Positions 10,415 to 33,583 of a stretch of DNA of 64,000 bases are shown here, in pieces; within the stretch, counting starts at the first letter, position 1; each line of letters starts with the position of its first letter. Under the pieces are notes generated by a model, which was given only the letters and a program-made list of their open reading frames with translations, had not been told where the DNA came from and did not search any database. The position numbers and the translations under genes are program-made. The DNA is from Planctomycetota bacterium (GTDB lineage Bacteria > Planctomycetota > GCA-002687715 > CAIWVZ01): positions 32,001 through 96,000 of the forward strand of contig JBGANV010000005.1 of assembly GCA_044222185.1 (NCBI GenBank), in the 5' to 3' direction.

Positions 10415-10903
10415 TCACGCGAGCTGGCGAAGCAGACCCCAATACCACGGCCAGAAGCAGAGGGCGGAAAGGGCGAACACGCTGCACGAAACCCACGCCG
10501 CAGCCATGGTCCGCGGATGCTTGCGGTGACGCTTCAGGAGGAGGGCGATCAGCATTCCCAGCTCGGCGGGCAGCGCCAGTGCCGCGAACAGCTGGGCGAC
10601 GGCCGTGATGTGACCCGTGACGCAATACGGCGTGAAGAACAACGCCACGAAATCGTCGCCCCGCGGCCGGAAGTAGAGGCGATCGATGGTGAAGATCCCC
10701 GCGCAGAGCATGAACGTCCAGACCCCCACGATTCCGATGATGGCCGAGCCGGCGTGCAGGATGCGCGCGACGTTGGCGTTCGCTTCGTTGCGGGAGACGG
10801 CGTTCAGCTCGTACCCGGCGACCAGGGTCGCGACGGCGGCAACGACGGGGAGCGCCAGCCCGAACCAGCCGGCGTCGACGAATCCGCCTTTCGTAGGGTC
10901 CAT
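10415..10903 (-). CDS. Hypothetical ~4-TM membrane protein directly upstream of copA
   Basis: Four hydrophobic segments; 7 nt gap to the copA start; ATG at 10903. Confidence 0.55.
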   Translation of the reverse strand: MDPTKGGFVDAGWFGLALPVVAAVATLVAGYELNAVSRNEANANVARILHAGSAIIGIVGVWTFMLCAGIFTIDRLYFRPRGDDFVALFFTPYCVTGHITAVAQLFAALALPAELGMLIALLLKRHRKHPRTMAAAWVSCSVFALSALCFWPWYWGLLRQLA

Positions 10904-10990
10904 GTCGCCGCCACTCTGACATCTCGGCGCGGGCGCCACCATTCGAGAACGGTCGCCTCCGCACCGCGGCAAGGCGATGCCACGACGCCT

Positions 10991-11019
10991 TTGACCGCCG
11001 GCGGGGCCGGCTCTACGAT
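10991..11019 (+). promoter_or_regulatory. Sigma70-like promoter for the chitinase gene
   Basis: TTGACC (10991-10996), 17 nt spacer, TACGAT (11014-11019), ~50 nt before the ATG. Confidence 0.55.
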
Positions 11020-11070
11020 CGCGCCCTCACGACCCAGATCCCCGGGTCGAGGCGAAATGGAAGTTTGGCC

Positions 11071-12840
11071 ATGCACGGCAGAAACCTCGGAATGCAGGTG
11101 CGTGCGGCGGTCGTCGCCGCGACAGTCGTAGCCCTCCTCTCTCCGGCACACACGGCGGGAGCACAGACCGTCCTCGTCACGATCTCGGCGCCGCAGGCGT
11201 GGACCGGCGGGTTCAGCGGCGAGATCACGCTGACGAACAACGCGCCGTGGACCATCTTCGACTGGCGCCTCGCATTCGATGCACCCTGGAACGTGACCAG
11301 CCTCTGGGACGCCACGCTGACGTCGCACTCTGGCGCGCATTACGTCATCGACACGCTCGCCGCCGCCTGGAACGACGGAGACCTCTCACCGGGCGAGGTC
11401 AACACGTTCGGGTTCGTCGCGACCGGGACGCTGTCGACGCCGACGAGCGCGACGCTGAACGGGACGCCCATCACGTTCAACGTGCCATCGGCAGCTCCGC
11501 CGCCTCTCCAGCCCGCCGCGGCACCGCCGTGGCCATCGCGCGTCGCCGCACCGTACTTCGATGCCACCGGGTATCCGCCATTCGGCTTCGTCGCCGCCGC
11601 ATCGAGCACGGGGACGCGGCATTGGATCGCGGGATTCGTCGTCGCCACGTCGCCCACGGATCCCACGCCGAGCTTCGGCGGTTACTACCCGACGTCGGGC
11701 CAGTACCTCCTGCCGGAGATCAACGCGCTGCGCGCCATCGGCGGTGACGTCATGGTGTCGTTCGGCGGCGCCGCAGGCACCGAGATCTCGGTTGCCGCAA
11801 CGACGGCCGCGCAGGCGCAGGCGCGCTACCAATCGGTCATCGACGCCTACGCGTTCACCCACATCGACTTCGACGTGGAAGGCGCGTGGGTCGCCGACCC
11901 GCCGTCGATCGCTCGACGAAGCCAGGCCATCGCGGGGCTGCAGGCGACGGCCCAGCAGAACAACCGGCCGTTGTCCGTCTGGTTCACGCTCCCGGTCCTC
12001 CCGAGCGGGCTGACGCTCGATGGGATCAACGTTCTGGCCTCGGCGCTGAACCACGGCGTCGTGATCGCGGGAGTGAACATCATGGCGATGGACTACGGCG
12101 ACGGCGCCGCGCCGAATCCCGCCGGGCAGATGGGCGCTTATGCGATCCAGGCGGCGAATTCCACGTTCAGCCAGCTCCAGTCGCTGTACGCGAGTCACAA
12201 CCAACCCAAGTCCGCAGCCCAGCTTTGGAAGATGTTAGGCGTCACGCCCATGATCGGCGTGAACGACGTGCAGAGCGAGATCTTCCTCCCGAGCGACGCG
12301 CAACAAGTCGTCGCATTCGCGACGGCGCACGATCTGGGGCTTCTGGGGTTCTGGAGCGGCAACCGCGACCACCAGTGCCCCGGCGGAGCTCAGACGTCGG
12401 CGAGCGGAAGCTGCAGCAGCATCCTCCAGACGCCATTCCAGTTCACGATCATCTTCCATGCGTTCACGACGGGGGTGTGGGAGGACCTGGGATTCGCGAA
12501 AGCCGGATCGACCGGGTTCCCAACACTCACGGGCGGCGGTCTCCTCTTGCCCGGCACGCCGGCCACGTGGACGCTGTCGAACGTCCCCGCCGGAGCGACC
12601 GTCGTGTTCGTCGCGGGCGCGACGATCGTGAATGCACCGGTCCTGGGGGCCACCCTCGTCCCCTCGCCGGACGTCCTGCTTCCGCTGACGGCGGGACCGA
12701 CCGGCTCGGTCCAACTCGCCGTGAGCTGGCCTGCCGGTCTGCCTTTCGGGCTCCCGCTCGTCTACCAGTGCGGGATCTTCGACGTCGGCGCATCCCAGGG
12801 ACTCAGCGCCTCGAACGCATTGCGAAGCCGCACGCCCTGA
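11071..12840 (+). CDS. Secreted chitinase: CBM2 + GH18 (PF-ChiA-like) + C-terminal domain
   Basis: Signal peptide; CBM2-like WTGGFSGEITLTN...DW...WNV..LWDA; GH18 SFGGAAG, IDFDVEG (DxDxE), NIMAMDYG, TPMIGVND. Alternative start at 11092. Confidence 0.85.
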   Translation: MHGRNLGMQVRAAVVAATVVALLSPAHTAGAQTVLVTISAPQAWTGGFSGEITLTNNAPWTIFDWRLAFDAPWNVTSLWDATLTSHSGAHYVIDTLAAAWNDGDLSPGEVNTFGFVATGTLSTPTSATLNGTPITFNVPSAAPPPLQPAAAPPWPSRVAAPYFDATGYPPFGFVAAASSTGTRHWIAGFVVATSPTDPTPSFGGYYPTSGQYLLPEINALRAIGGDVMVSFGGAAGTEISVAATTAAQAQARYQSVIDAYAFTHIDFDVEGAWVADPPSIARRSQAIAGLQATAQQNNRPLSVWFTLPVLPSGLTLDGINVLASALNHGVVIAGVNIMAMDYGDGAAPNPAGQMGAYAIQAANSTFSQLQSLYASHNQPKSAAQLWKMLGVTPMIGVNDVQSEIFLPSDAQQVVAFATAHDLGLLGFWSGNRDHQCPGGAQTSASGSCSSILQTPFQFTIIFHAFTTGVWEDLGFAKAGSTGFPTLTGGGLLLPGTPATWTLSNVPAGATVVFVAGATIVNAPVLGATLVPSPDVLLPLTAGPTGSVQLAVSWPAGLPFGLPLVYQCGIFDVGASQGLSASNALRSRTP

Positions 12841-12959
12841 GACACGCGAAGGCCGATCGAAAGCGCACGGCTGCTTGTGACCCGGCCGCGCGAGCCGCGT
12901 CCTTCCTCGTGGTGCAGGCGCGGCCCGACAGTGCCATCATCCCCGTCACGGAGTTTCGA

Positions 12960-14735
12960 ATGCGATTCACCTCGAGCAGTTGCGCGGGACGGACCCCGAC
13001 CCGTCGGCGCACGACACGGCCTCTGATTCTCTTCCTCGTCCTCGTTGGTGCCGGCACGGTCCTGCGCGGTCAGGATCCGGGTGCGGCGCGTTCCTACGAC
13101 TTCAGGATGCTCGAGAGGCTCGGCGCGACCTTCGACCGGAACCTTCCGATCGAGACGCCTCCGCTGCGACCTGGCGCGGCGGGCGAAGCCTCCATGCGCT
13201 ACCTGTGGACGGAACAGCGCGAAAGCACCGTGCGTTTCGGCGACGGTGAAATCTCGCCGCTTCTGCGCGCAGCCGCGGGCGTCGCGCCCAACGCCGACCC
13301 CGGACAAGTCATGGAAGGAGGCGGGGCCCGCTTCACGTTCCGCGGCTCCGTCGAGCGTCAGCAGCAGTTCGCGTCCTCCATCGCGCAACTGGTCGAGGCG
13401 ATCGCCGCCGAGGCCATCGTCGACATCTTCGAGATCCCGGCAGCGGCCACCGTGAACATCGACAAGAACGTGCTCGATCCCAAGCAGGTCTCCGATCTCC
13501 TTGCAGCGGTCAAGCCGACCCGGTCCCAGCGTGTCCGGGCGCAGTTCGGAGTCCAGGCCGCCATCGATTCCGTCACGCGCAAGGCCTACGTGAAGGACTA
13601 CGACGTCGAGGTCGCCCAGAGCTCGAGCGCTGGCGACCCGCTCATCGACGTCCTGCTCTCGGGCTTCCGCGGCACCGTTCGCGTCGAACCGACGATCGAC
13701 GGGCGGTTGGCGATCACGATCCGCGCCAGCGATCAGCATGAAGTCGCCGCGATGAAATCTCACGTGGTGAAGTTCCCGACGGAAGGAACGATCCAACTCC
13801 CGACGGTCGCGTGGAGCTGCGCCGGCGCCAGCGCGCTGGTCGTCAACGAGGGCGGCGTGCTGTTCGGCAACAACGTGAACGACCGTGGACTGTGGCTCGC
13901 CCGCGTGCGTCGCGCGGCACAGCCGAAGCCCCTCGCCATCGAGGGTGCCGAGTTGCTCCCCGTCGGGCCGCTCGTCCTGCCCGTGTTGACACAGGCGGCG
14001 CGCTCGCACGTAGGCGTCGTCAACGCATCCGGCAACTCGGATCCGGCCGCGGAGGCATCGGCGGAGGACCTCTTCCACTACGACCGACAGTGGATCGCGG
14101 ACAACCTCTTCGGCTCCACCGTGGGGGACCACGACGTGACGATGGTCGGCACGAGCCTCGCCGTGGTGGCCAACGACGCCCAGCGGAAGAGCGCCCGCGA
14201 GATGATCACGCGCCTCACGCGTGACGTTGCGCGCACGGTCAGCCTGGAGGTACGCGCCGGAGTGCTCGACGCGAGTGCCGCGCCCGATCCCGCGGTGGAC
14301 GACTCGAGCGTCGCCGCCGCCCTCCCGCTCCGCCTGCGCACCTGCGCACGCACGCGGGACAGCGTCCTCATGGTCGCCGCCACGTGCGAAGCCTACATGA
14401 AGGACGAGGACGTGGAGATCGCGGAGAAGGCGACCATCGCGGACCCCAACGTCGACGTCCTGCAAACGGGATTGAGCTGCTCCGCCACGGTGACGACGGC
14501 GGGCGAGAACCGCTGGGTGGTGGAGTGGACGCTTCGCTACAGCGAGCACGCCGGGAAGATGGGGAGCGTGCTCACCACGCACGACGACACGGGCCCGATC
14601 GACCTCCCGGAACTTCGGGGCGTGAGCCTCGGCGGACAGTCGCTGCCGGAGGCCGGCACGTGGGTCGAGGTCTGCCGCACGACCGTTGCCGGCACGGACA
14701 AGGTGTTCCTGGCGTTCATCCGCCTCGCGGAGTGA
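12960..14735 (+). CDS. Exported protein with two tandem secretin-like (N3 + reduced core) modules; paralog A
   Basis: Hydrophobic signal; duplicated motif KAYVKDYDVEVAQ...GDPLIDVL.SG / EAYMKDEDVEIAE...ADPNVDVL.TG; TIQLP / PIDLP; VSLEVR. The ORF track start at 11886 is an overlap artefact. Confidence 0.6.
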   Translation: MRFTSSSCAGRTPTRRRTTRPLILFLVLVGAGTVLRGQDPGAARSYDFRMLERLGATFDRNLPIETPPLRPGAAGEASMRYLWTEQRESTVRFGDGEISPLLRAAAGVAPNADPGQVMEGGGARFTFRGSVERQQQFASSIAQLVEAIAAEAIVDIFEIPAAATVNIDKNVLDPKQVSDLLAAVKPTRSQRVRAQFGVQAAIDSVTRKAYVKDYDVEVAQSSSAGDPLIDVLLSGFRGTVRVEPTIDGRLAITIRASDQHEVAAMKSHVVKFPTEGTIQLPTVAWSCAGASALVVNEGGVLFGNNVNDRGLWLARVRRAAQPKPLAIEGAELLPVGPLVLPVLTQAARSHVGVVNASGNSDPAAEASAEDLFHYDRQWIADNLFGSTVGDHDVTMVGTSLAVVANDAQRKSAREMITRLTRDVARTVSLEVRAGVLDASAAPDPAVDDSSVAAALPLRLRTCARTRDSVLMVAATCEAYMKDEDVEIAEKATIADPNVDVLQTGLSCSATVTTAGENRWVVEWTLRYSEHAGKMGSVLTTHDDTGPIDLPELRGVSLGGQSLPEAGTWVEVCRTTVAGTDKVFLAFIRLAE

Positions 14736-14772
14736 CATGACCTGGGCGAGCCCGATCCTCGGACGACATCTC

Positions 14773-16482
14773 ATGCGAACGACCGCGGCTCGCGTCGCGG
14801 CGTTCGCCCTGCTGGCAGCGACGGTCGTCGCGCAGCAGGCCGTCGTCACGCGTGCCTACAGCCTCGACTGGGTCTCCAAGCTCGGCCGGGCCGTGGACGA
14901 GGATCTCCTGCTCGAAGTGGGTCCGCTGCGTCTGCGATCCGATGATGCCGCCGCGGCGCTTGGCGAGGACAAGGACACGTTCCGGCTCGACTCGCCCGCG
15001 ACCGTGCGTTTTCTCGATGCTCTTCGCATGGTCTACACCGCGGCCGGCCTCGACCCGGACCACATTCCCGAAAACGTCGCGTCCGTCGACGGAGAAGTCG
15101 TGCGGCTCACGGTGGACGACGCCCACCATGCGGCCGTCGCGCGTGCGCTCGCGGACCTCACGTCCGCGATTCGGGATGCCTATCGGATGGACGTGTTCGA
15201 GATCGCCGGCGGCGACGAACTCCCAGCGGGCGCCGTGCTGACGTCCGCCGCGGCCCGGAAGCTCATGGTCCCCGGCAAGAGCCGACACATCGCGGGAACG
15301 AACCTCCGCCCGGGGATCAGCACGTCCCTGCGATCGACGGGCACCCGCGCCTACCTGCAAGTCGTCGCCGCCGAGGTGGCGTGTGCGTCTCGACCCACTG
15401 GCGATCCGACCGTCGGCACGCTCGAACGGGGAATCCGCGCCGTTGCGCGCGTCCTCGACGCGGGCGGAGGCCGCATCGCCGTGTCGTTCCGTGGCGCGGT
15501 GCAGCGCGAGGCGACCCCGCCGCGCCTGCACGACGTCAACTTCACCAGCCGCGGAACGATCCAACTGCCGGTCGTCGATTGGACATGCCTGGGCGCCGAA
15601 TCCGTCGTCGAATCAGGCGGCGCCATCGTGCTTGCGGCGGATGGTCCCGCGCCCGTCCGATGGCTCGTGAGCGTCCGCAGCGGCAAACGCACGGATCCCG
15701 ACGCGGACTCCCCGTTCATTCCCGTCGGAGTCCTGCGCTTCGACGGCGGCCACGCGCAGGTCGAACTGCCGCCGGGCCGGCTCGCTCCATCGGGGAGCTC
15801 GGACTACCTGGATGTCACCGGACCCGCGCCCGACGAGGCGGACCCGATCCTCGGGTCCATCCTTCAGTCCACGCCGCAGACCACGTTGCTCGGCACGAGC
15901 CTCGTGATGCACGGCGACGTGGGCGCTCGCCGGAGCGTCCGGACGCAGATCGAGTCCGCGACGCGAGACCGCACGAAATCCGCCACCGTCGAGTTCAGGG
16001 CCGGTGAGATCGACGGTGTCGCCGGCGCAGCCGCAGGCGGTGGTGGCTCCGCGGATGCGGCGCAGACAGCACCATTCGTGTTTCGGGTTCCCATCGTCAC
16101 CGGACACCGAGTCCGCCTGATCGCGGCGACGGCCCATGCGTACCTGAAGGATCAGGACATCGAGATCGCGCACGACACGTCCGTCGGCAACGCCGTCGTC
16201 GCGGTCGTGGACGACGGCACGGACGTCTCGGTCGAGGCCCATGCCGTTGGCCAGGGCACGTGGCTCGTGCAGTGGGAACTGGGGCGCGGACGTCTCGCCG
16301 TCCCCATTCCGGGCGTGCCCTCCACTCGCGAAGAGATCGGCAACATCGAGATGCCGACGACGACGACGGTCACGGCCTCGGGCACGTCCCTCGTGAAGGC
16401 CGGCGATTGGGTCGAGTTGAACCGCACGAGCGGTCCGGGTTCGGCACGACCGTTCGTCGCATTCCTTCGACTGACGGAATGA
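14773..16482 (+). CDS. Exported protein with two tandem secretin-like modules; paralog B
   Basis: Signal MRTTAARVAAFALLAATVVA|Q; RAYLQVVAAEVA...GDPTVGTL.RG / HAYLKDQDIEIAH...GNAVVAVV.DG; GTIQLP; ends FVAFLRLTE like paralog A (FLAFIRLAE). Alternative start at 14737. Confidence 0.6.
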   Translation: MRTTAARVAAFALLAATVVAQQAVVTRAYSLDWVSKLGRAVDEDLLLEVGPLRLRSDDAAAALGEDKDTFRLDSPATVRFLDALRMVYTAAGLDPDHIPENVASVDGEVVRLTVDDAHHAAVARALADLTSAIRDAYRMDVFEIAGGDELPAGAVLTSAAARKLMVPGKSRHIAGTNLRPGISTSLRSTGTRAYLQVVAAEVACASRPTGDPTVGTLERGIRAVARVLDAGGGRIAVSFRGAVQREATPPRLHDVNFTSRGTIQLPVVDWTCLGAESVVESGGAIVLAADGPAPVRWLVSVRSGKRTDPDADSPFIPVGVLRFDGGHAQVELPPGRLAPSGSSDYLDVTGPAPDEADPILGSILQSTPQTTLLGTSLVMHGDVGARRSVRTQIESATRDRTKSATVEFRAGEIDGVAGAAAGGGGSADAAQTAPFVFRVPIVTGHRVRLIAATAHAYLKDQDIEIAHDTSVGNAVVAVVDDGTDVSVEAHAVGQGTWLVQWELGRGRLAVPIPGVPSTREEIGNIEMPTTTTVTASGTSLVKAGDWVELNRTSGPGSARPFVAFLRLTE

Positions 16483-16504
16483 ACGAACGGGCGCCTGCGC
16501 GCGC

Positions 16505-17377
16505 TCAGCCGATCCGGTTCCCCTTCTCGTCGTACTTGTAGACGCCCTGGCCCGTCTTCTTCCCCAGGTGTCCGGCATTCACCAGCTTCTCGATCATCGG
16601 TGAGGGTCGATAAGTCTCCCCCAGCGTCTTGTGCAGGTATCGCAGAGTCGACAGCCGCGTGTCGAGGCCGACGAGGTCGACCATCTCGAATGGCCCCATG
16701 GGGTGGTTCAACCCCAGCTTCAAGGCCTTGTCGATGTCCTGGGCGCTGGCGATTCCGGCCTCGAGCATCCGGAACGCCTCGTTGCCGATGAGCGCGTTGA
16801 TGCGCGACGTGGCGAAGCCCGGCGACTCCTTCACGCGCACCGTTTCCTTCTCCATCTTCTTCGACACCCACTCCGTGGCCTCGAGCGCGGCCGCAGACGA
16901 CTCGGGCCCGAGGATGATCTCGATCAGGCGCATGACCGGCACGGGGTTGAAGAAGTGCATTCCGATGACGCGGCCGTGGTCCTTCACGGGCGCTGCGATC
17001 TCGCTGATCATGAGGCTCGACGTGTTCGTAGCGAGGACCACGTCCGGCCGGAGGATCGCCTCGAGCTGCGTGAAGAGTTTCTGTTTCAGGTCGAGCTTCT
17101 CGGGCACGGCTTCGATGACGAAGTCCGTCGTTCGGGCAGCCGTCTGGAGGTCCGTCGTCGTCTTGAGCAGCTCACCAGCACGCGACGCGCGGGCGCCGTC
17201 GACCTTCCCCTTCTCGACGCCTTTCTGGATCGACTCCAGGATCCGCTTGCGGGCCTTCTCCAGCGCGCCGGCGTCGATGTCGTAGAGCCATGTGGTGAAA
17301 CCGGCGAGCGCGGAGACCTGGGCGATGCCGGCGCCCATGATGCCGGAGCCGAGCACGGTGACTTCCTGGATGTTCAC
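16505..17377 (-). CDS. 3-hydroxyacyl(butyryl)-CoA dehydrogenase
   Basis: VLGSGIMGAGIA (NAD binding), EAVPE, ATNTSS, GMHFFNP, HPMGPFE...DLVGLD. GTG start. Confidence 0.92.
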   Translation of the reverse strand: MNIQEVTVLGSGIMGAGIAQVSALAGFTTWLYDIDAGALEKARKRILESIQKGVEKGKVDGARASRAGELLKTTTDLQTAARTTDFVIEAVPEKLDLKQKLFTQLEAILRPDVVLATNTSSLMISEIAAPVKDHGRVIGMHFFNPVPVMRLIEIILGPESSAAALEATEWVSKKMEKETVRVKESPGFATSRINALIGNEAFRMLEAGIASAQDIDKALKLGLNHPMGPFEMVDLVGLDTRLSTLRYLHKTLGETYRPSPMIEKLVNAGHLGKKTGQGVYKYDEKGNRIG

Positions 17378-30114: not shown

Positions 30115-30221
30115 CCCGGCGTGGCTGATGGCTGGCGCCGCGCGGCGGGGCCTGCATCGAGCCGATTCCAGTCCGACTTTCACGATGCGGCGCGCACGGC
30201 GGGCCGCCAGGAGTGCACGAC

Positions 30222-30515
30222 ATGAAGACTCGTCAATCGCGGTTCTCGAACATGGCTCTGGGCGCGGCCGTCGCGGGGATCATCGCCGGATCGATGCTCA
30301 TCGGCGGATGCAGCAAGGACTCCAAGGGCGAAGGGCAGAAGACCGAGGGCAACGGCTGCAACGGCCCCAACGGATGCGGCGCCCAGAAGAAGGCCGAGAA
30401 GAACGCCTGCAACGGTCACAACGGATGCAACGGGGCAAAGACGGAGAAGGCCGCGCCGGCCGCCACCGACAAGAACGCCTGCAACGGCCACAACACCTGC
30501 AGCGCGAAGAAGTGA
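30222..30515 (+). CDS. MNIO RiPP precursor (bufferin-like): lipoprotein with three NxCNGxNxC repeats
   Basis: AGGAG RBS; signal ending LIGGC (lipobox-like); repeats GNGCNGPNGC, KNACNGHNGC, KNACNGHNTC; immediately upstream of DUF692. Confidence 0.8.
   Translation: MKTRQSRFSNMALGAAVAGIIAGSMLIGGCSKDSKGEGQKTEGNGCNGPNGCGAQKKAEKNACNGHNGCNGAKTEKAAPAATDKNACNGHNTCSAKK
30348..30500 (+). repeat. Three coding repeats of the Cys-rich core peptide
   Basis: AAGAACGCCTGCAACGG is identical at 30399 and 30471; a degenerate copy lies at 30348. Confidence 0.8.
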
Positions 30516-30621
30516 TCGAAGGATGCCGCGCTGCCCCACGGCAGAACGCGACGTGAATCGGACCCCTACGCCGCCGACGCGCAACCGCGCGCGGCGGACG
30601 ATCCGAAAGTGAGGTGCCACG

Positions 30622-31473
30622 ATGGCAGCCAACCGCCTCGATCTTCCCGACCTGGGCCTGGGCCTGGGACTGCGTGCACCCCACGTCCGCGAGATCCTCG
30701 ATTCGCACCCGGCCGTCGGGTTCTTCGAGGTCATCTCCGAGAACTACATGGACACGCGAGGGCGCCCGCTCCAGACGCTGGATGCGATCGCCGCGCGGTA
30801 TCCCGTCGTGATGCACGGGGTCTCCATGTCGCTCGGCTCGGCGGATCCGCTCGACCGGAACTACCTCCGCAAGCTGAAGCAACTCGCGCATCGATGCCGG
30901 GCAAGCTGGGTCTCGGATCACCTCTGCTGGACCGGCGTGCTTGGAATCAACACGCACGACCTGCTTCCCCTCCCCTACACCGAGGCCGCCCTCGCGCACG
31001 TGACGGCGAGGATCCGCGAGGCCTCGGACTTCCTCGAGCGCCCGCTCGTGATCGAGAACCCATCGTCCTACGTCAGGTTCGCCGCCTCGTGCATGCCCGA
31101 GCACGAATTCCTCGCGCGCATGGCGGAGGACGCCGACTGCGGACTCCTGCTCGACGTGAACAACGTCTACGTGAGCGCCCGCAACCACGGATTCGACCCG
31201 GACGCCTACGTCGACGCCGTACCCGCCGACCGCGTCGTCCAGATCCATCTCGCGGGTCACTCGGACAACATCACGCACGTCATCGACACCCACGACGACC
31301 ACGTCGTCGACGAGGTCTGGCGGCTCTACGCGCGGCTTTGTGCGAGAACCGGCCCGGTCTCGACGATGATCGAGTGGGACGCGCGCATCCCGTCGTTCGA
31401 GGTTCTGCATTCGGAGGTCCAGAAGGCCGCTCCTCTGCGGCATGGAGGAGTCCCTCATGTCGCAGCACGGTGA
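30622..31473 (+). CDS. Multinuclear non-heme iron oxidase (MNIO, DUF692/UPF0276; BufB-like)
   Basis: GLGLR.PH, FEVISENY, HGVSMSLG, SDHLCW, ENPSSY, LLDVNNVYV, HLAGH, IDTHD, EWD. Confidence 0.93.
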   Translation: MAANRLDLPDLGLGLGLRAPHVREILDSHPAVGFFEVISENYMDTRGRPLQTLDAIAARYPVVMHGVSMSLGSADPLDRNYLRKLKQLAHRCRASWVSDHLCWTGVLGINTHDLLPLPYTEAALAHVTARIREASDFLERPLVIENPSSYVRFAASCMPEHEFLARMAEDADCGLLLDVNNVYVSARNHGFDPDAYVDAVPADRVVQIHLAGHSDNITHVIDTHDDHVVDEVWRLYARLCARTGPVSTMIEWDARIPSFEVLHSEVQKAAPLRHGGVPHVAAR

Positions 31474-32314
31474 CGTGGAGTCGATGGCGCTCGACCGCCT
31501 CCAACGCTGGATGCAGGCCGTGATCATCCACCCCGGCACGACGGCGGAAGCGCTGGGTTCGCCCGATGCGTTGCGAGATGGATTGCCTGGCGGACTCGCG
31601 AGCGTGATCCTCCCGTCGAAGGCGCTCAGTGCCGCCGAGCATCTGTGCATCTACCGCGACATGTATCGCCTGCGCCTCGAACGCGCCCTCGCCGACGATC
31701 ATCCGGCGACGCTGCAGGTGCTCGGCCCGGACCGCTTCTCGGCGCTCGCTCGAGACTACATCACGAGACATCCGTCGCGGAGCTTCACGCTCAACGGGTA
31801 CGGCGCCGGTTTCGCGGCGTTCCTGGCGACGTCATCCGATCTGGATGCGGGGCAGCGCGCCTGGCTCGCCGACCTGGTCCGCCTCGAAGCGGCGATCGCC
31901 CACGTCCACGAGACGCCGACGGACGAGCCCGTGAGCCCGGCACGCCTCGCGGAGTTTCCGGCGGATGCGTGGGAGCACGCACGCCTCGTTCCGGTGTCGG
32001 GTCTGAGGCTCATCACTCTCAGTTTCGCCGTCGGTGACGTGTATCAGGCATGGCTCGACGGGACCCCGGTCGAGTCCCCGCGGCGGCGGATCTCCCGAAT
32101 CGTGGTGTACCGCCACGGCGACGCCGTCCGCCGCCTCGAGCTCACGCGCGACGCCCGTGAGCTGCTCGTCGGACTCGCGGCAGGGCGCGCGCTCGGCGAC
32201 GCGCTCGCCGACGTCGACGTCAGGTCTCAGGACGACCTGGACCCGGGCCGCGTGTTCCGGTGGCTCCGTCAATGGGTCGGCGAAGGCCTGTTCGCCGACA
32301 TCGCCGCCGGTTGA
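31457..32314 (+). CDS. MNIO partner protein (DUF2063/HvfC/BufC-like)
   Basis: LQRWMQAVI, L.IY..MY..RL..AL..D.P, HPS.S..L..YG..F..FL, DL.RLE; overlaps the MNIO stop. Confidence 0.85.
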   Translation: MSQHGDVESMALDRLQRWMQAVIIHPGTTAEALGSPDALRDGLPGGLASVILPSKALSAAEHLCIYRDMYRLRLERALADDHPATLQVLGPDRFSALARDYITRHPSRSFTLNGYGAGFAAFLATSSDLDAGQRAWLADLVRLEAAIAHVHETPTDEPVSPARLAEFPADAWEHARLVPVSGLRLITLSFAVGDVYQAWLDGTPVESPRRRISRIVVYRHGDAVRRLELTRDARELLVGLAAGRALGDALADVDVRSQDDLDPGRVFRWLRQWVGEGLFADIAAG

Positions 32315-32338
32315 CGCCGGCGCGATCCGCGCGCGTCC

Positions 32339-32366
32339 GTAACCCGAGCCGACGGCGCGCATCGAA
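32339..32366 (+). promoter_or_regulatory. Putative ECF-sigma promoter of doxX (likely leaderless mRNA)
   Basis: GTAACC-N14-GCATCGAA ends 5 nt before the ATG at 32372; no clear SD. Confidence 0.55.
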
Positions 32367-32371
32367 GGGGC

Positions 32372-32893
32372 ATGAACACCGCAACCGCCAACTCCAACGG
32401 CACCATCCAGAATGGAGCCCGCGCGCTCACCACGCGCCTCTCGACGATGGTCGACGGAGCCGTCCGCGTCGCGCGTCCCACCGTGATCGTGCTCACGCGC
32501 TTCCTCGTGGGTTACGTCTTCCTCCGCACGGGATTCCTGAAGCTGACGCACTTCTCGAACGTCGTGCAGTTCTTCACGGACCTCGGACTGCCGGTCCCGG
32601 GCGCCAACGCCGCGCTCGTCTCGACCCTGGAGTTCGTGGGGGGGCTCGCGATCCTCGCGGGTGCCGGGACGCGGGTCTTCTCGCTTCTCCTCGTTCCGAC
32701 CATGGTCGTCGCGTTGCTCACCGCGGACCGCGAGCGATTCCTCGGAGCGTTCAGTTTCTCCGCCGACCATTCGCTGACCGACGTGGCGCCCGTCCCCCTC
32801 CTCGCCCTGCTGCTCTGGCTCGCCGCCGGCGGCGCAGGACGCCTCAGCGTCGATGCGTTGCTGGCGAACCGCCGGAGGGCGATGGGCGGGTAG
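32372..32893 (+). CDS. DoxX family membrane protein (BufD-like)
   Basis: R..VG.VF..TG..KL, F..LGLP.P, E.VGG...L.G..TR, GAGRLSVD. Confidence 0.88.
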   Translation: MNTATANSNGTIQNGARALTTRLSTMVDGAVRVARPTVIVLTRFLVGYVFLRTGFLKLTHFSNVVQFFTDLGLPVPGANAALVSTLEFVGGLAILAGAGTRVFSLLLVPTMVVALLTADRERFLGAFSFSADHSLTDVAPVPLLALLLWLAAGGAGRLSVDALLANRRRAMGG

Positions 32894-32953
32894 CGCGCGA
32901 GCTCCGGACCGCCGGACTCGCCCGCAGGTTGCCTGCGTGGTAGCCTGCGGCGC

Positions 32954-33583
32954 ATGCAACCACCCGTGGGAGCAGCGCCCGCGCATCCCGCGCGATCGAG
33001 TGACGACGAGGCCTTCGTCGCCAGGCTCCGGGCCGGCGACGACGCGGCCTTCGAGGAACTCCTGCGCACACACGGGGGCCGCATGCTGATGGCGGCTCGA
33101 CGCATACTCGGAAACGACGCAGACGCCGCCGACGCACTCCAGGACGCCATGTTCTCCGTCTCGAAATCCATAGGAACCTTCACGGAACGGTCGCAGCTCG
33201 CGACGTGGCTTCACCGGATCGCCGTGAACGCGGCCCTCATGCGGCTTCGTTCCCGGCGCTCGAGATCGGAGGAGTCCATCGAGTCGCTGATGCCGGCGTT
33301 CAAGGAGGACGGCCACCACGTCCTCCAGCCGAGCCGGTGGAACATCGGTGAGGAGCCGGACCTCGCGCGGGAGGAATCGCGACGGCTCGTCCGCCGAGCG
33401 ATCGACCAGCTGCCGGAGAGCTTCCGCGTCGTTCTCCTGCTGAGGGACATCGAGGAAGTCGACTCGACGGAGGTCGCCAGGTCGCTCGGGATCACCCCAA
33501 ATGCGGTGAAGGTTCGACTCCACCGAGCGCGACAGGCGCTTCGAACGCTCCTGGATCGCCAGTTCGGAGGGCCCCAATCGTGA
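32954..33583 (+). CDS. ECF RNA polymerase sigma factor
   Basis: DAADALQDA, TWLHRIAVNAAL, LP...R.V.LLRD.E......VA..LGIT..AVKVRLHRAR. Confidence 0.93.
   Translation: MQPPVGAAPAHPARSSDDEAFVARLRAGDDAAFEELLRTHGGRMLMAARRILGNDADAADALQDAMFSVSKSIGTFTERSQLATWLHRIAVNAALMRLRSRRSRSEESIESLMPAFKEDGHHVLQPSRWNIGEEPDLAREESRRLVRRAIDQLPESFRVVLLLRDIEEVDSTEVARSLGITPNAVKVRLHRARQALRTLLDRQFGGPQS

Follow-up and report, generated by a model that had tools for sequence, protein, structure and literature searches.

Secretins are known as giant gated pores of the outer membrane that serve secretion systems, pili and filamentous phages, with one core in each chain and 12-17 chains to a ring. We have analyzed a window of 64,000 nt (the whole stretch of DNA studied; contig JBGANV010000005.1 of assembly GCA_044222185.1, from a Planctomycetota bacterium whose genome we label G000) in which two adjacent genes on the forward strand, A (12960..14735) and B (14773..16482), encode relatives of these pores. 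Canonical secretins such as GspD, PilQ, InvG, pIV and RcpA differ from A and B in their double-walled barrel, whose lip and amphipathic helical loop lie at the membrane, and in many cases also in having an S-domain and a pilotin, as given in the sections of PMC10499894, PMC8563730 and bioRxiv 10.1101/2020.03.03.975896 that deal with their architecture. In the same sections they have a single core per chain and are encoded with genes of type II (T2SS) or type III (T3SS) secretion systems, pili or phages, and neither of these statements holds for A and B.

The one solved protein that resembles A and B by sequence profile is BfpB, the secretin of the type IVb pilus of enteropathogenic E. coli, which is a 17-mer (PDB 9u5s). 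Judged by alignment, it shares the N3 domain, the inner barrel and gates 1 and 2 with the family to which A and B belong. BfpB differs from the family in being a lipoprotein that carries an N0 domain, has its outer barrel complete, holds a single core in each chain and forms a pore in the outer membrane. The explanation that we favor overall, and consider somewhat probable, is that A and B are recent tandem duplicates of a gene for a doubled, lip-less secretin module that is periplasmic, forms rings and is linked to a sigma factor. The separate parts of this explanation are weighed below.

Sequence comparisons place A and B in an unnamed Planctomycetota family of predicted exported proteins of ~580 amino acids. 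A profile of this family was built from an alignment of 117 full-length members. When it was compared with solved proteins the sole match was BfpB (9u5s_A, E = 5.1e-15), in two stretches: profile positions 163-282 correspond to residues 366-485 of the BfpB core, which are the only part of that core to align with the family, and positions 337-433 correspond to the BfpB N3 domain (residues 224-317). The family is also related to a true secretin of the same genome, L005. Comparison by hhalign gave 98.7% and E = 1.9e-16 over 259 columns, pairing residues 40-305 of A with 245-605 of L005, and in BLASTP the C-terminal half of A is 38% identical to L005 over 63 amino acids (E = 8e-9). True secretins in all 41 of the related genomes match the family profile at around E = 1e-20, in both the N-domain and the core.

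A structure model of A built from a two-sequence alignment had a pLDDT of 28.7; the alignment of 117 sequences was required, and yielded a model with pLDDT 88.1 and pTM 0.88. The top 19 matches of this model in Foldseek were all secretins, with low global TM-scores. The best 28 rows in VIA-align were likewise all secretins, with Z between 8.3 and 10.7, and the next row fell to Z = 5.6. For example, GspD (5wq7_A) was superimposed on model residues 326-591 with Z = 10.7 and an rmsd (root-mean-square deviation) of 4.5 Å over 189 aligned residues. The N3 + core fold is equally shared with PilQ (6w6m_A, Z = 10.3) and with RcpA, a minimal Tad secretin (8odn_A, Z = 9.7, rmsd 3.5 Å, 124 aligned residues). 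In a fold search of 48,161 chains that was independent of Foldseek, all 12 chains with Z ≥ 8 were secretins, and ranks 13-18 were isolated secretin N-domains (EscC, XcpQ, PilQ, InvG and GspD) lying on model residues 328-424 with Z = 6.8-7.6 and rmsd 1.8-3.5 Å. Taken with the sequence profiles, the predicted fold confirms that A and B are secretin-derived, each half comprising an N3-type domain and then a secretin core. This is the order of elements that a preliminary description of the window had read as paralleling secretins, and it is borne out by profile and by fold, with similarity to secretins reaching E = 5.1e-15 and Z = 10.7.

The true secretins of G000 provide a comparison within one cell. 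They are two paralogs, ~5 kb apart on the same strand of contig C7 (76435-79203 and 84397-87006), with open frames of 922 and 869 amino acids; their loci are L005 and L003, which as read from truncated locus sequences encode 663 and 666 amino acids. Both carry the acidic gate-1 motif YVKD[YF]DVE[VI]AQ that is typical of the phylum. Shared by A, B and these secretins are an N-domain with a long insert, a strand V.hE.R, the gate-1 stretch YVKDYDVEVAQ..IADP.VDV, a strand G..L.V.P, the motif h.LP and a GG turn. Only the C7 secretins have one core per chain, ~90 extra residues between N-domain and core, the motif P.L..IP..SLLF and a longer C-terminus. They also have extra N-terminal domains, namely helical regions and a hint of STN (L005 matches PF07660 weakly, E = 0.0074); the chains of A and B each contain two cores and lack all of these additions.

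This close likeness bears on a different explanation, in which the cell's true secretins are joined, capped or restrained by the modules. These would then be a regulator or decoy that works through the N3 and gate-region surfaces common to both, and would build no structure of their own. Both true secretins of G000 have a nearly identical version of YxKDxDVEhAQ..hADP, the family's best-conserved stretch, and there are true secretins matching the profile in each of the 41 related genomes. However, the secretin genes are unlinked to A and B, lying on C7, and eight of the order's 23 genomes have secretins but lack the family. We regard such a regulator as very unlikely.

Comparison of the halves shows that A and B each contain a cut-down secretin module twice over, as an internal duplication. 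BLASTP of residues 1-330 of A against 331-591 gave E = 2e-8 over 121 amino acids. The N-terminal half of A matched the C-terminal half of B at 9e-5, and the N-terminal half of B matched the C-terminal half of A at 4e-4; the two halves of B matched each other at 0.43 only. At the level of the family, the profile of the N-terminal halves aligned to that of the C-terminal halves with a probability of 99.8% and E = 5.1e-30 over 211 columns, indicating that the duplication is ancestral to the family. The halves do therefore self-align, and the earlier statement that each protein is made of two similar halves stands. Its finer details also hold. The motif AY..D.D.E.A starts at 13584, 14391, 15349 and 16138, within 3 nt of the positions first given; a helix and a strand in each half are found in the model (helices 131-148 and 406-423, strands 151-158 and 426-437); and the sequences do contain G.I.LP, the GG or GxW turn and the final hydrophobic strand.

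The four modules of each protein can be mapped on the forward strand. In A, the first N3-type module spans residues 40-150 (13077..13409) and has a long insert after its first strand; it was placed by hhalign (A 40-158 against L005 245-365) and by the secondary structure of the model. The first cut-down core (residues 151-320, 13410..13919) has short outer strands and four long strands that match the inner barrel and gates 1 and 2, and lacks the lip and the P.L..IP..G.LF motif; its motif, AYVKDYDVEVAQ, begins at 13584. The second N3-type module (residues 326-424, 13935..14231) is the one matched by the isolated secretin N-domains (Z = 6.8-7.6, rmsd ~2 Å, 59-64 residues aligned) and by BfpB N3 224-317. 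The second cut-down core (residues 425-591, 14232..14732) belongs to the region superimposed on GspD 5wq7_A and to the half with 38% identity to L005. In B, an N3-type module at residues 23-135 (14839..15177), mapped from A by pairwise alignment, precedes a cut-down core at 136-305 (15178..15687) whose motif, AYLQVVAAEVAC from 15349, has lost its acidic residues. A second N3-type module at 311-401 (15703..15975), again mapped by alignment to A, and a second cut-down core at 402-569 (15976..16479) complete the chain.

Genome G000 contains some further relatives of the module. One, L006, is a single-module protein of 443 amino acids with an N-domain and a cut-down core (C15:138743-142084, open reading frame 862-2193, + strand), lying ~44 kb past the end of the window; it scores 30.5 bits against PF00263, for which the cut-off is 27.5. 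A gene for an extracytoplasmic function (ECF) sigma factor is found ~2.3 kb upstream of it, at C15:136592-137242. Partial relatives occur at C2:5952-7451 and C10:2574-3680. In addition L004 (C2:194504-197674, open reading frame 1441-2544, - strand) encodes a 367-amino-acid exported TPR/HEAT-repeat protein that ends in a fragment of the gate-1 stretch, AYVKDFDVQVAQGAVIADPIVDVVQDG. This is a HEAT protein bearing a piece of the module that elsewhere adjoins a HEAT anti-sigma factor.

Which parts of a secretin have been kept? The legend to Fig. 4 of PMC12114550 divides BfpB into outer barrel (307-392 and 495-545), inner barrel (393-405, 431-460 and 480-492), gate 1 (406-430) and gate 2 (461-479). 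On the map in that legend, the stretch to which profile positions 163-282 align without large gaps (366-485) corresponds to the inner barrel and both gates. By this alignment, segments matching the inner barrel and the two gates are retained in the family. The strongly conserved YxKDxDVEhAQ..hADP opens the gate and inner-barrel part, and is followed by an invariant glycine (G504, or G235 in the first half). The preliminary description had taken the gate insertions to be absent, which the alignment does not support; what is missing instead is the beta-lip stretch and the region of the P.L..IP..G.LF motif.

The beta-lip lies between the first two strands of the outer barrel, which in the comparison of A with L005 means after the last strand of the N-domain and before the one that comes next. 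At this position A has 29 amino acids (residues 159-187, predicted to form a short helix) against ~118 in L005, some 90 fewer. The part of PMC8563730 that treats the lip gives 36 to ~80 residues for it in known secretins. Past the GG turn A has ~20 residues, which form two short strands with a loop of 5-6 residues in the model, and L005 has 57 more, including P.L..IP..SLLF; residues 606-662 of L005 have no counterpart in A. A pattern search for motifs like P.L..IP..G.LF found none in the 117 family members, and both true secretins carry one. Lip and amphipathic helical loop are the parts of secretins that contact the membrane, according to the relevant sections of bioRxiv 10.1101/2020.03.03.975896 and PMC10499894. 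Because the parts held to enter the outer membrane, the lip stretch and the C-terminal motif region, are missing, insertion into that membrane is unlikely, and A and B are probably periplasmic proteins and not outer-membrane pores.

Other terminal features are consistent with this location. The C-terminal residue is F, W or Y in only 7 of the 117 members, and both A and B end in E. A C-terminal aromatic residue is the beta-signal of classical outer-membrane beta-barrel proteins, the substrates of the beta-barrel assembly machinery (BAM). A and B lack this mark of BAM-type barrels, and the matches of the model to barrel folds are weak (Z ≤ 6.6, rmsd ~9 Å or more). A lipobox-like site is present in 5 of the 117. 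The N-terminus of A has a basic and then hydrophobic stretch at about residues 1-38 (12960..13073), which we read from the sequence as a Sec signal peptide; in the structure model pLDDT is below 50 at residues 1-21. Since N-termini of this kind are found in A, in B and in the first 25 family members listed, we infer that A and B are exported by the Sec pathway.

The retained parts suggest how the proteins might assemble. Each module consists of an N3-type ring-building domain, short outer strands and the segments matching the inner barrel and gates, and chains would join edge to edge in the manner of secretin subunits, giving a membrane-free gated ring with two pseudo-subunits per chain. This is proposed because N3 domains and secretin sheets oligomerize in every solved relative, and because the doubled chain keeps two free edges. 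We consider such a ring an evenly balanced proposition.

The model can also be read in another way, with the two halves packed against each other as a monomeric pseudo-dimer. The resulting single beta structure, closed or curved, would serve in the periplasm for binding or as a scaffold, with neither a ring nor a sigma role. The pTM of 0.88 for the single chain implies a fixed arrangement of the four modules, and the internal duplication is ancestral to the family. In the fold search, moreover, the whole-model matches ranked below the secretins are single-chain outer-membrane barrels (TamA at Z = 6.6, others at Z = 5-6; rmsd ~9 Å or more), so that a closed or curved monomeric sheet is possible, which counts against the ring. 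On the other hand these barrel matches have rmsd values of ~9-13 Å, in the range that the tool calls common, and N3 domains and secretin sheets oligomerize in every solved relative listed. The pseudo-dimer would also leave unexplained the synteny and co-occurrence with an anti-sigma factor described below. We judge it improbable, and return to the ring-forming, sigma-linked protein as the favored reading.

A and B align over their full length, with 175 of 594 positions identical (29%, E = 2e-55), and the preliminary description was correct in calling them two adjacent exported paralogs of 591 and ~569 amino acids, export being read from the N-termini. A maximum-likelihood tree of 22 members of the family, taken from G000 and related genomes, joins A and B as sisters with support of 100/99, on branches of 0.83 for A and 1.48 for B. 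They are again sisters, with support of 1.0, in a FastTree phylogeny of 38 sequences. All 20 related loci from the first 41 genomes have one family gene within 8 kb either side, and two copies on different contigs are found in seven of those 41 genomes (G008, G014, G016, G018, G020, G022 and G039). Evidently the A/B pair is a recent, local and lineage-specific duplication; since A and B are sisters and the gene is single at 20 of 20 loci, the basic unit is one double-module protein. Other tandem pairs do occur, two in G210 and one each in G240 and G297 (L041-L044); in three of these four pairs the genes are 0-1 nt apart. These pairs form a clade of their own in the drawn tree, separate from A and B, from which it follows that tandem doubling has happened at least twice; two of the pairs sit behind a sigma/anti-sigma pair.

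The preliminary description had seen in the pair four distinct repeat units, and had proposed a hetero-oligomeric ring in the outer membrane or periplasm, a channel or adaptor; A and B would take turns in such an (A+B)n ring, which might sit in the outer membrane or span the envelope. A and B are indeed adjacent and both intact, tight tandem pairs arose in the other lineage too (G210, G240 and G297), and the N3 domains and inner-barrel and gate segments are retained. Nevertheless, the sister relationship of A and B and the single gene at 20 of 20 loci, together with the seven genomes whose two copies lie on different contigs, show four distinct units to be a recent local state, derived and not the design of the family. 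The lip region and C-terminal motif are missing. Of 11 residues that are nearly invariant in the family, A lacks one (G297 is E) and B lacks two (D213 is V and P496 is A), and the losses in B are equally compatible with relaxed selection. An alternating ring of this kind is unlikely in our view.

The favored reading draws its functional part from the surroundings of the family gene in other genomes. We have examined 32 related loci, 20 in a first set (from the first 41 genomes) and 12 in a second. A recurrent order was found, in which a gene for an ECF sigma factor is followed by that for an anti-sigma factor of 530-620 amino acids with zf-HC2 and HEAT_2 domains and then by the family gene; a BamB-like pyrroloquinoline quinone (PQQ) propeller is often next. 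The anti-sigma gene is directly upstream of the family gene at 15 of the 32 loci, of which 10 belong to the 20 of the first set and five to the 12 of the second, and in 14 of these 15 the ECF sigma gene precedes it, the anti-sigma gene standing alone in one. Among the recurrent neighbors of the 32 loci no T2SS, T3SS, type IV pilus or filamentous-phage genes were seen. The neighborhoods to which the preliminary description had pointed as a check show a recurrent sigma/anti-sigma association and, among the recurrent neighbors, no secretion genes.

The corresponding cluster of G000 lies on contig C1 (198646-212426). It contains genes for a histidine kinase, an ECF sigma factor (203212-204117), an anti-sigma factor of the zf-HC2/HEAT type (204118-205773) and a BamB-like PQQ propeller (205852-207096), followed by GldG-like and DUF4340-like genes; apart from the missing family gene, its make-up is that of relatives. 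Only 78 nt separate the anti-sigma gene from the propeller gene, the site that the family gene occupies in relatives. In G002, the closest relative to hold the family, the anti-sigma gene is still directly upstream. The simplest account is of a gene that, in this lineage, moved out of the sigma operon, came to lie behind a chitinase gene and doubled.

Some envelope signaling units are built of three parts, such as sigmaE-RseA-RseB, FecI-FecR-FecA and the PUMA3 unit VreA-VreI-VreR. The family resembles these in gene order only, its gene being third (at 14 of the 32 loci) in the place of the periplasmic or outer-membrane partner. A and B lack both the STN signaling domain (no PF07660 match at E ≤ 10) and an RseB-like domain; the outer part of the family-linked anti-sigma factor is made of HEAT repeats, unlike that of the three-part units, and in G000 the genes are unlinked. 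Because of the synteny and co-occurrence with the pair of ECF sigma and HEAT anti-sigma factors, we tentatively propose that the family would work with this sigma factor and with a membrane anti-sigma factor having a periplasmic HEAT-repeat domain. Its role would be that of a periplasmic partner or sensor of the anti-sigma factor, or else it would be the main output of the sigma factor; such a role is possible, if short of probable. In G000, A and B would act in trans, since the gene has left the sigma operon and now stands behind the chitinase gene.

A more specific form of this proposal is that the secretin fold has been reused as a membrane-free periplasmic device, whose two-module chains form a gated ring or present gate hairpins, sensing on behalf of the HEAT-domain anti-sigma factor. 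G000 would then exemplify a partner gene that has been freed and doubled, and whose copies are starting to diverge into two subunits. In this full form we consider the proposal rather unlikely.

Several observations weigh against the favored reading. Neither A nor B matches the Secretin family of Pfam (PF00263) even at E ≤ 10, and no family was recognized for either in Pfam and NCBIfam; the PF00263 scan does detect the true secretins of this genome, L005 at E = 5e-25 and L003 at 1e-26. The P.L..IP..G.LF motif is presumed by us to be the amphipathic helical loop. No sigma or anti-sigma neighbor of A and B is found within 15 kb. At 17 of the 32 related loci no sigma/anti-sigma pair was found, two or three of these being at contig ends, and 26 open reading frames scanned upstream at 12 of the 17 belonged to unrelated families or to none. 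Co-occurrence favors the link: among the 23 genomes of the order, an ortholog of the anti-sigma factor is present in 14 of 15 genomes holding the family and in none of eight lacking it. The genomes are kin, however, so that this contrast overstates the link. Built from two families of the order, the anti-sigma profile detected none in 18 more distant genomes, of which two hold the family.

One clade (L032, L033 and L035, in G018, G008 and G014) has a gene for a small PspC-domain membrane protein (PF04024, E = 1.8e-12) directly after the family gene. The association is seen at only 3 of the 32 related loci, all in this clade. PspC is a member of the phage-shock response, which is triggered by secretins in enterobacteria.

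The family is a substantial one. An exhaustive profile search of 1.84 billion representatives gave 502 at E ≤ 1e-3; thresholds of ≤ 1e-10 and ≤ 1e-30 left 166 and 15. Most of the matches are 560-620 amino acids long and align end to end. Word-indexed homolog searches, which are too insensitive for this family, returned the query itself only or one true secretin. At a match threshold of E ≤ 1e-30 the family is present in 82 of 301 sampled Planctomycetota genomes, in 54 of the 191 of high quality and in 69 of 237 genera. When the names of 10 clusters were looked up, two were 'hypothetical protein' and eight had no name. In the literature searched, beyond which lie most subscription journals, we found no report of lip-less, truncated or doubled secretin modules, nor of secretin-like anti-sigma partners in Planctomycetota. 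Within that same literature, the view that A and B are undescribed secretin-derived proteins is upheld.

Both genes appear intact. Gene A encodes 591 amino acids (P0001) and has GGAG 8-11 nt 5′ of its ATG. Gene B, the more diverged copy, encodes 569 amino acids from its ATG, and an alternative in-frame TTG at 14686 would extend this to 598. That B might be a pseudogene is ruled out by its intact frame, its full-length alignment to A and a third-position GC of 0.82, like that of neighboring genes. Contigs from public runs of another study bridge both junctions, X2 (948 nt, 14016-14963) spanning that between A and B and X4 (449 nt, 12600-13048) that between the chitinase gene and A; an assembly artifact as the source of the gene order is ruled out by these two contigs.

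The gene upstream of A (11065..12840, + strand) ends 119 nt before it. Its product has a CBM_2 domain (E = 1.7e-13), a chitinase catalytic domain (9buf_A, 'Exochitinase 1', E = 2.4e-70) and ~120 C-terminal amino acids; the catalytic domain was missed by the Pfam GH18 model. Both the gap and the catalytic domain agree with the earlier placing of the pair downstream of a same-strand chitinase. In a scan of 10900-16900 the single promoter-like site (10991-11019) lay upstream of the chitinase gene, and no terminator-like site was found between that gene and A, which is weak evidence on operon structure. Among 24 neighbors scanned between 373 and 37014 there are no T2SS or type IV pilus genes, again as first described; the neighbors include genes for a copper ATPase, an S49 peptidase, fatty-acid oxidation enzymes and two-component proteins. 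Farther along, at 30213-33583, a small open reading frame is followed by genes for an enzyme of the MbnB/TglH/ChrH family (PF05114, E = 2e-110), DUF2063 and DoxX proteins and an ECF sigma factor. The group has the appearance of a peptide-modification cluster of the ribosomally synthesized and post-translationally modified peptide (RiPP) type with its own regulator.

The family has kept the ring-building domain and the inner-barrel and gate segments of a secretin, dropped the stretches held to enter the membrane and doubled the module in one chain, with no secretion machine alongside. A family model would improve the annotation of several hundred proteins, given the 502 representatives found. 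A ring, if one does form, would reveal what fraction of a secretin is required to assemble and to gate in the absence of a membrane. The link to the sigma and HEAT anti-sigma factors, if true, would offer a first way into one of the phylum's many sigma systems that still await explanation. And if the sensing device exists, it would be a new kind of envelope signaling unit, in which a pore ring and its gate are reused to report the state of the envelope.

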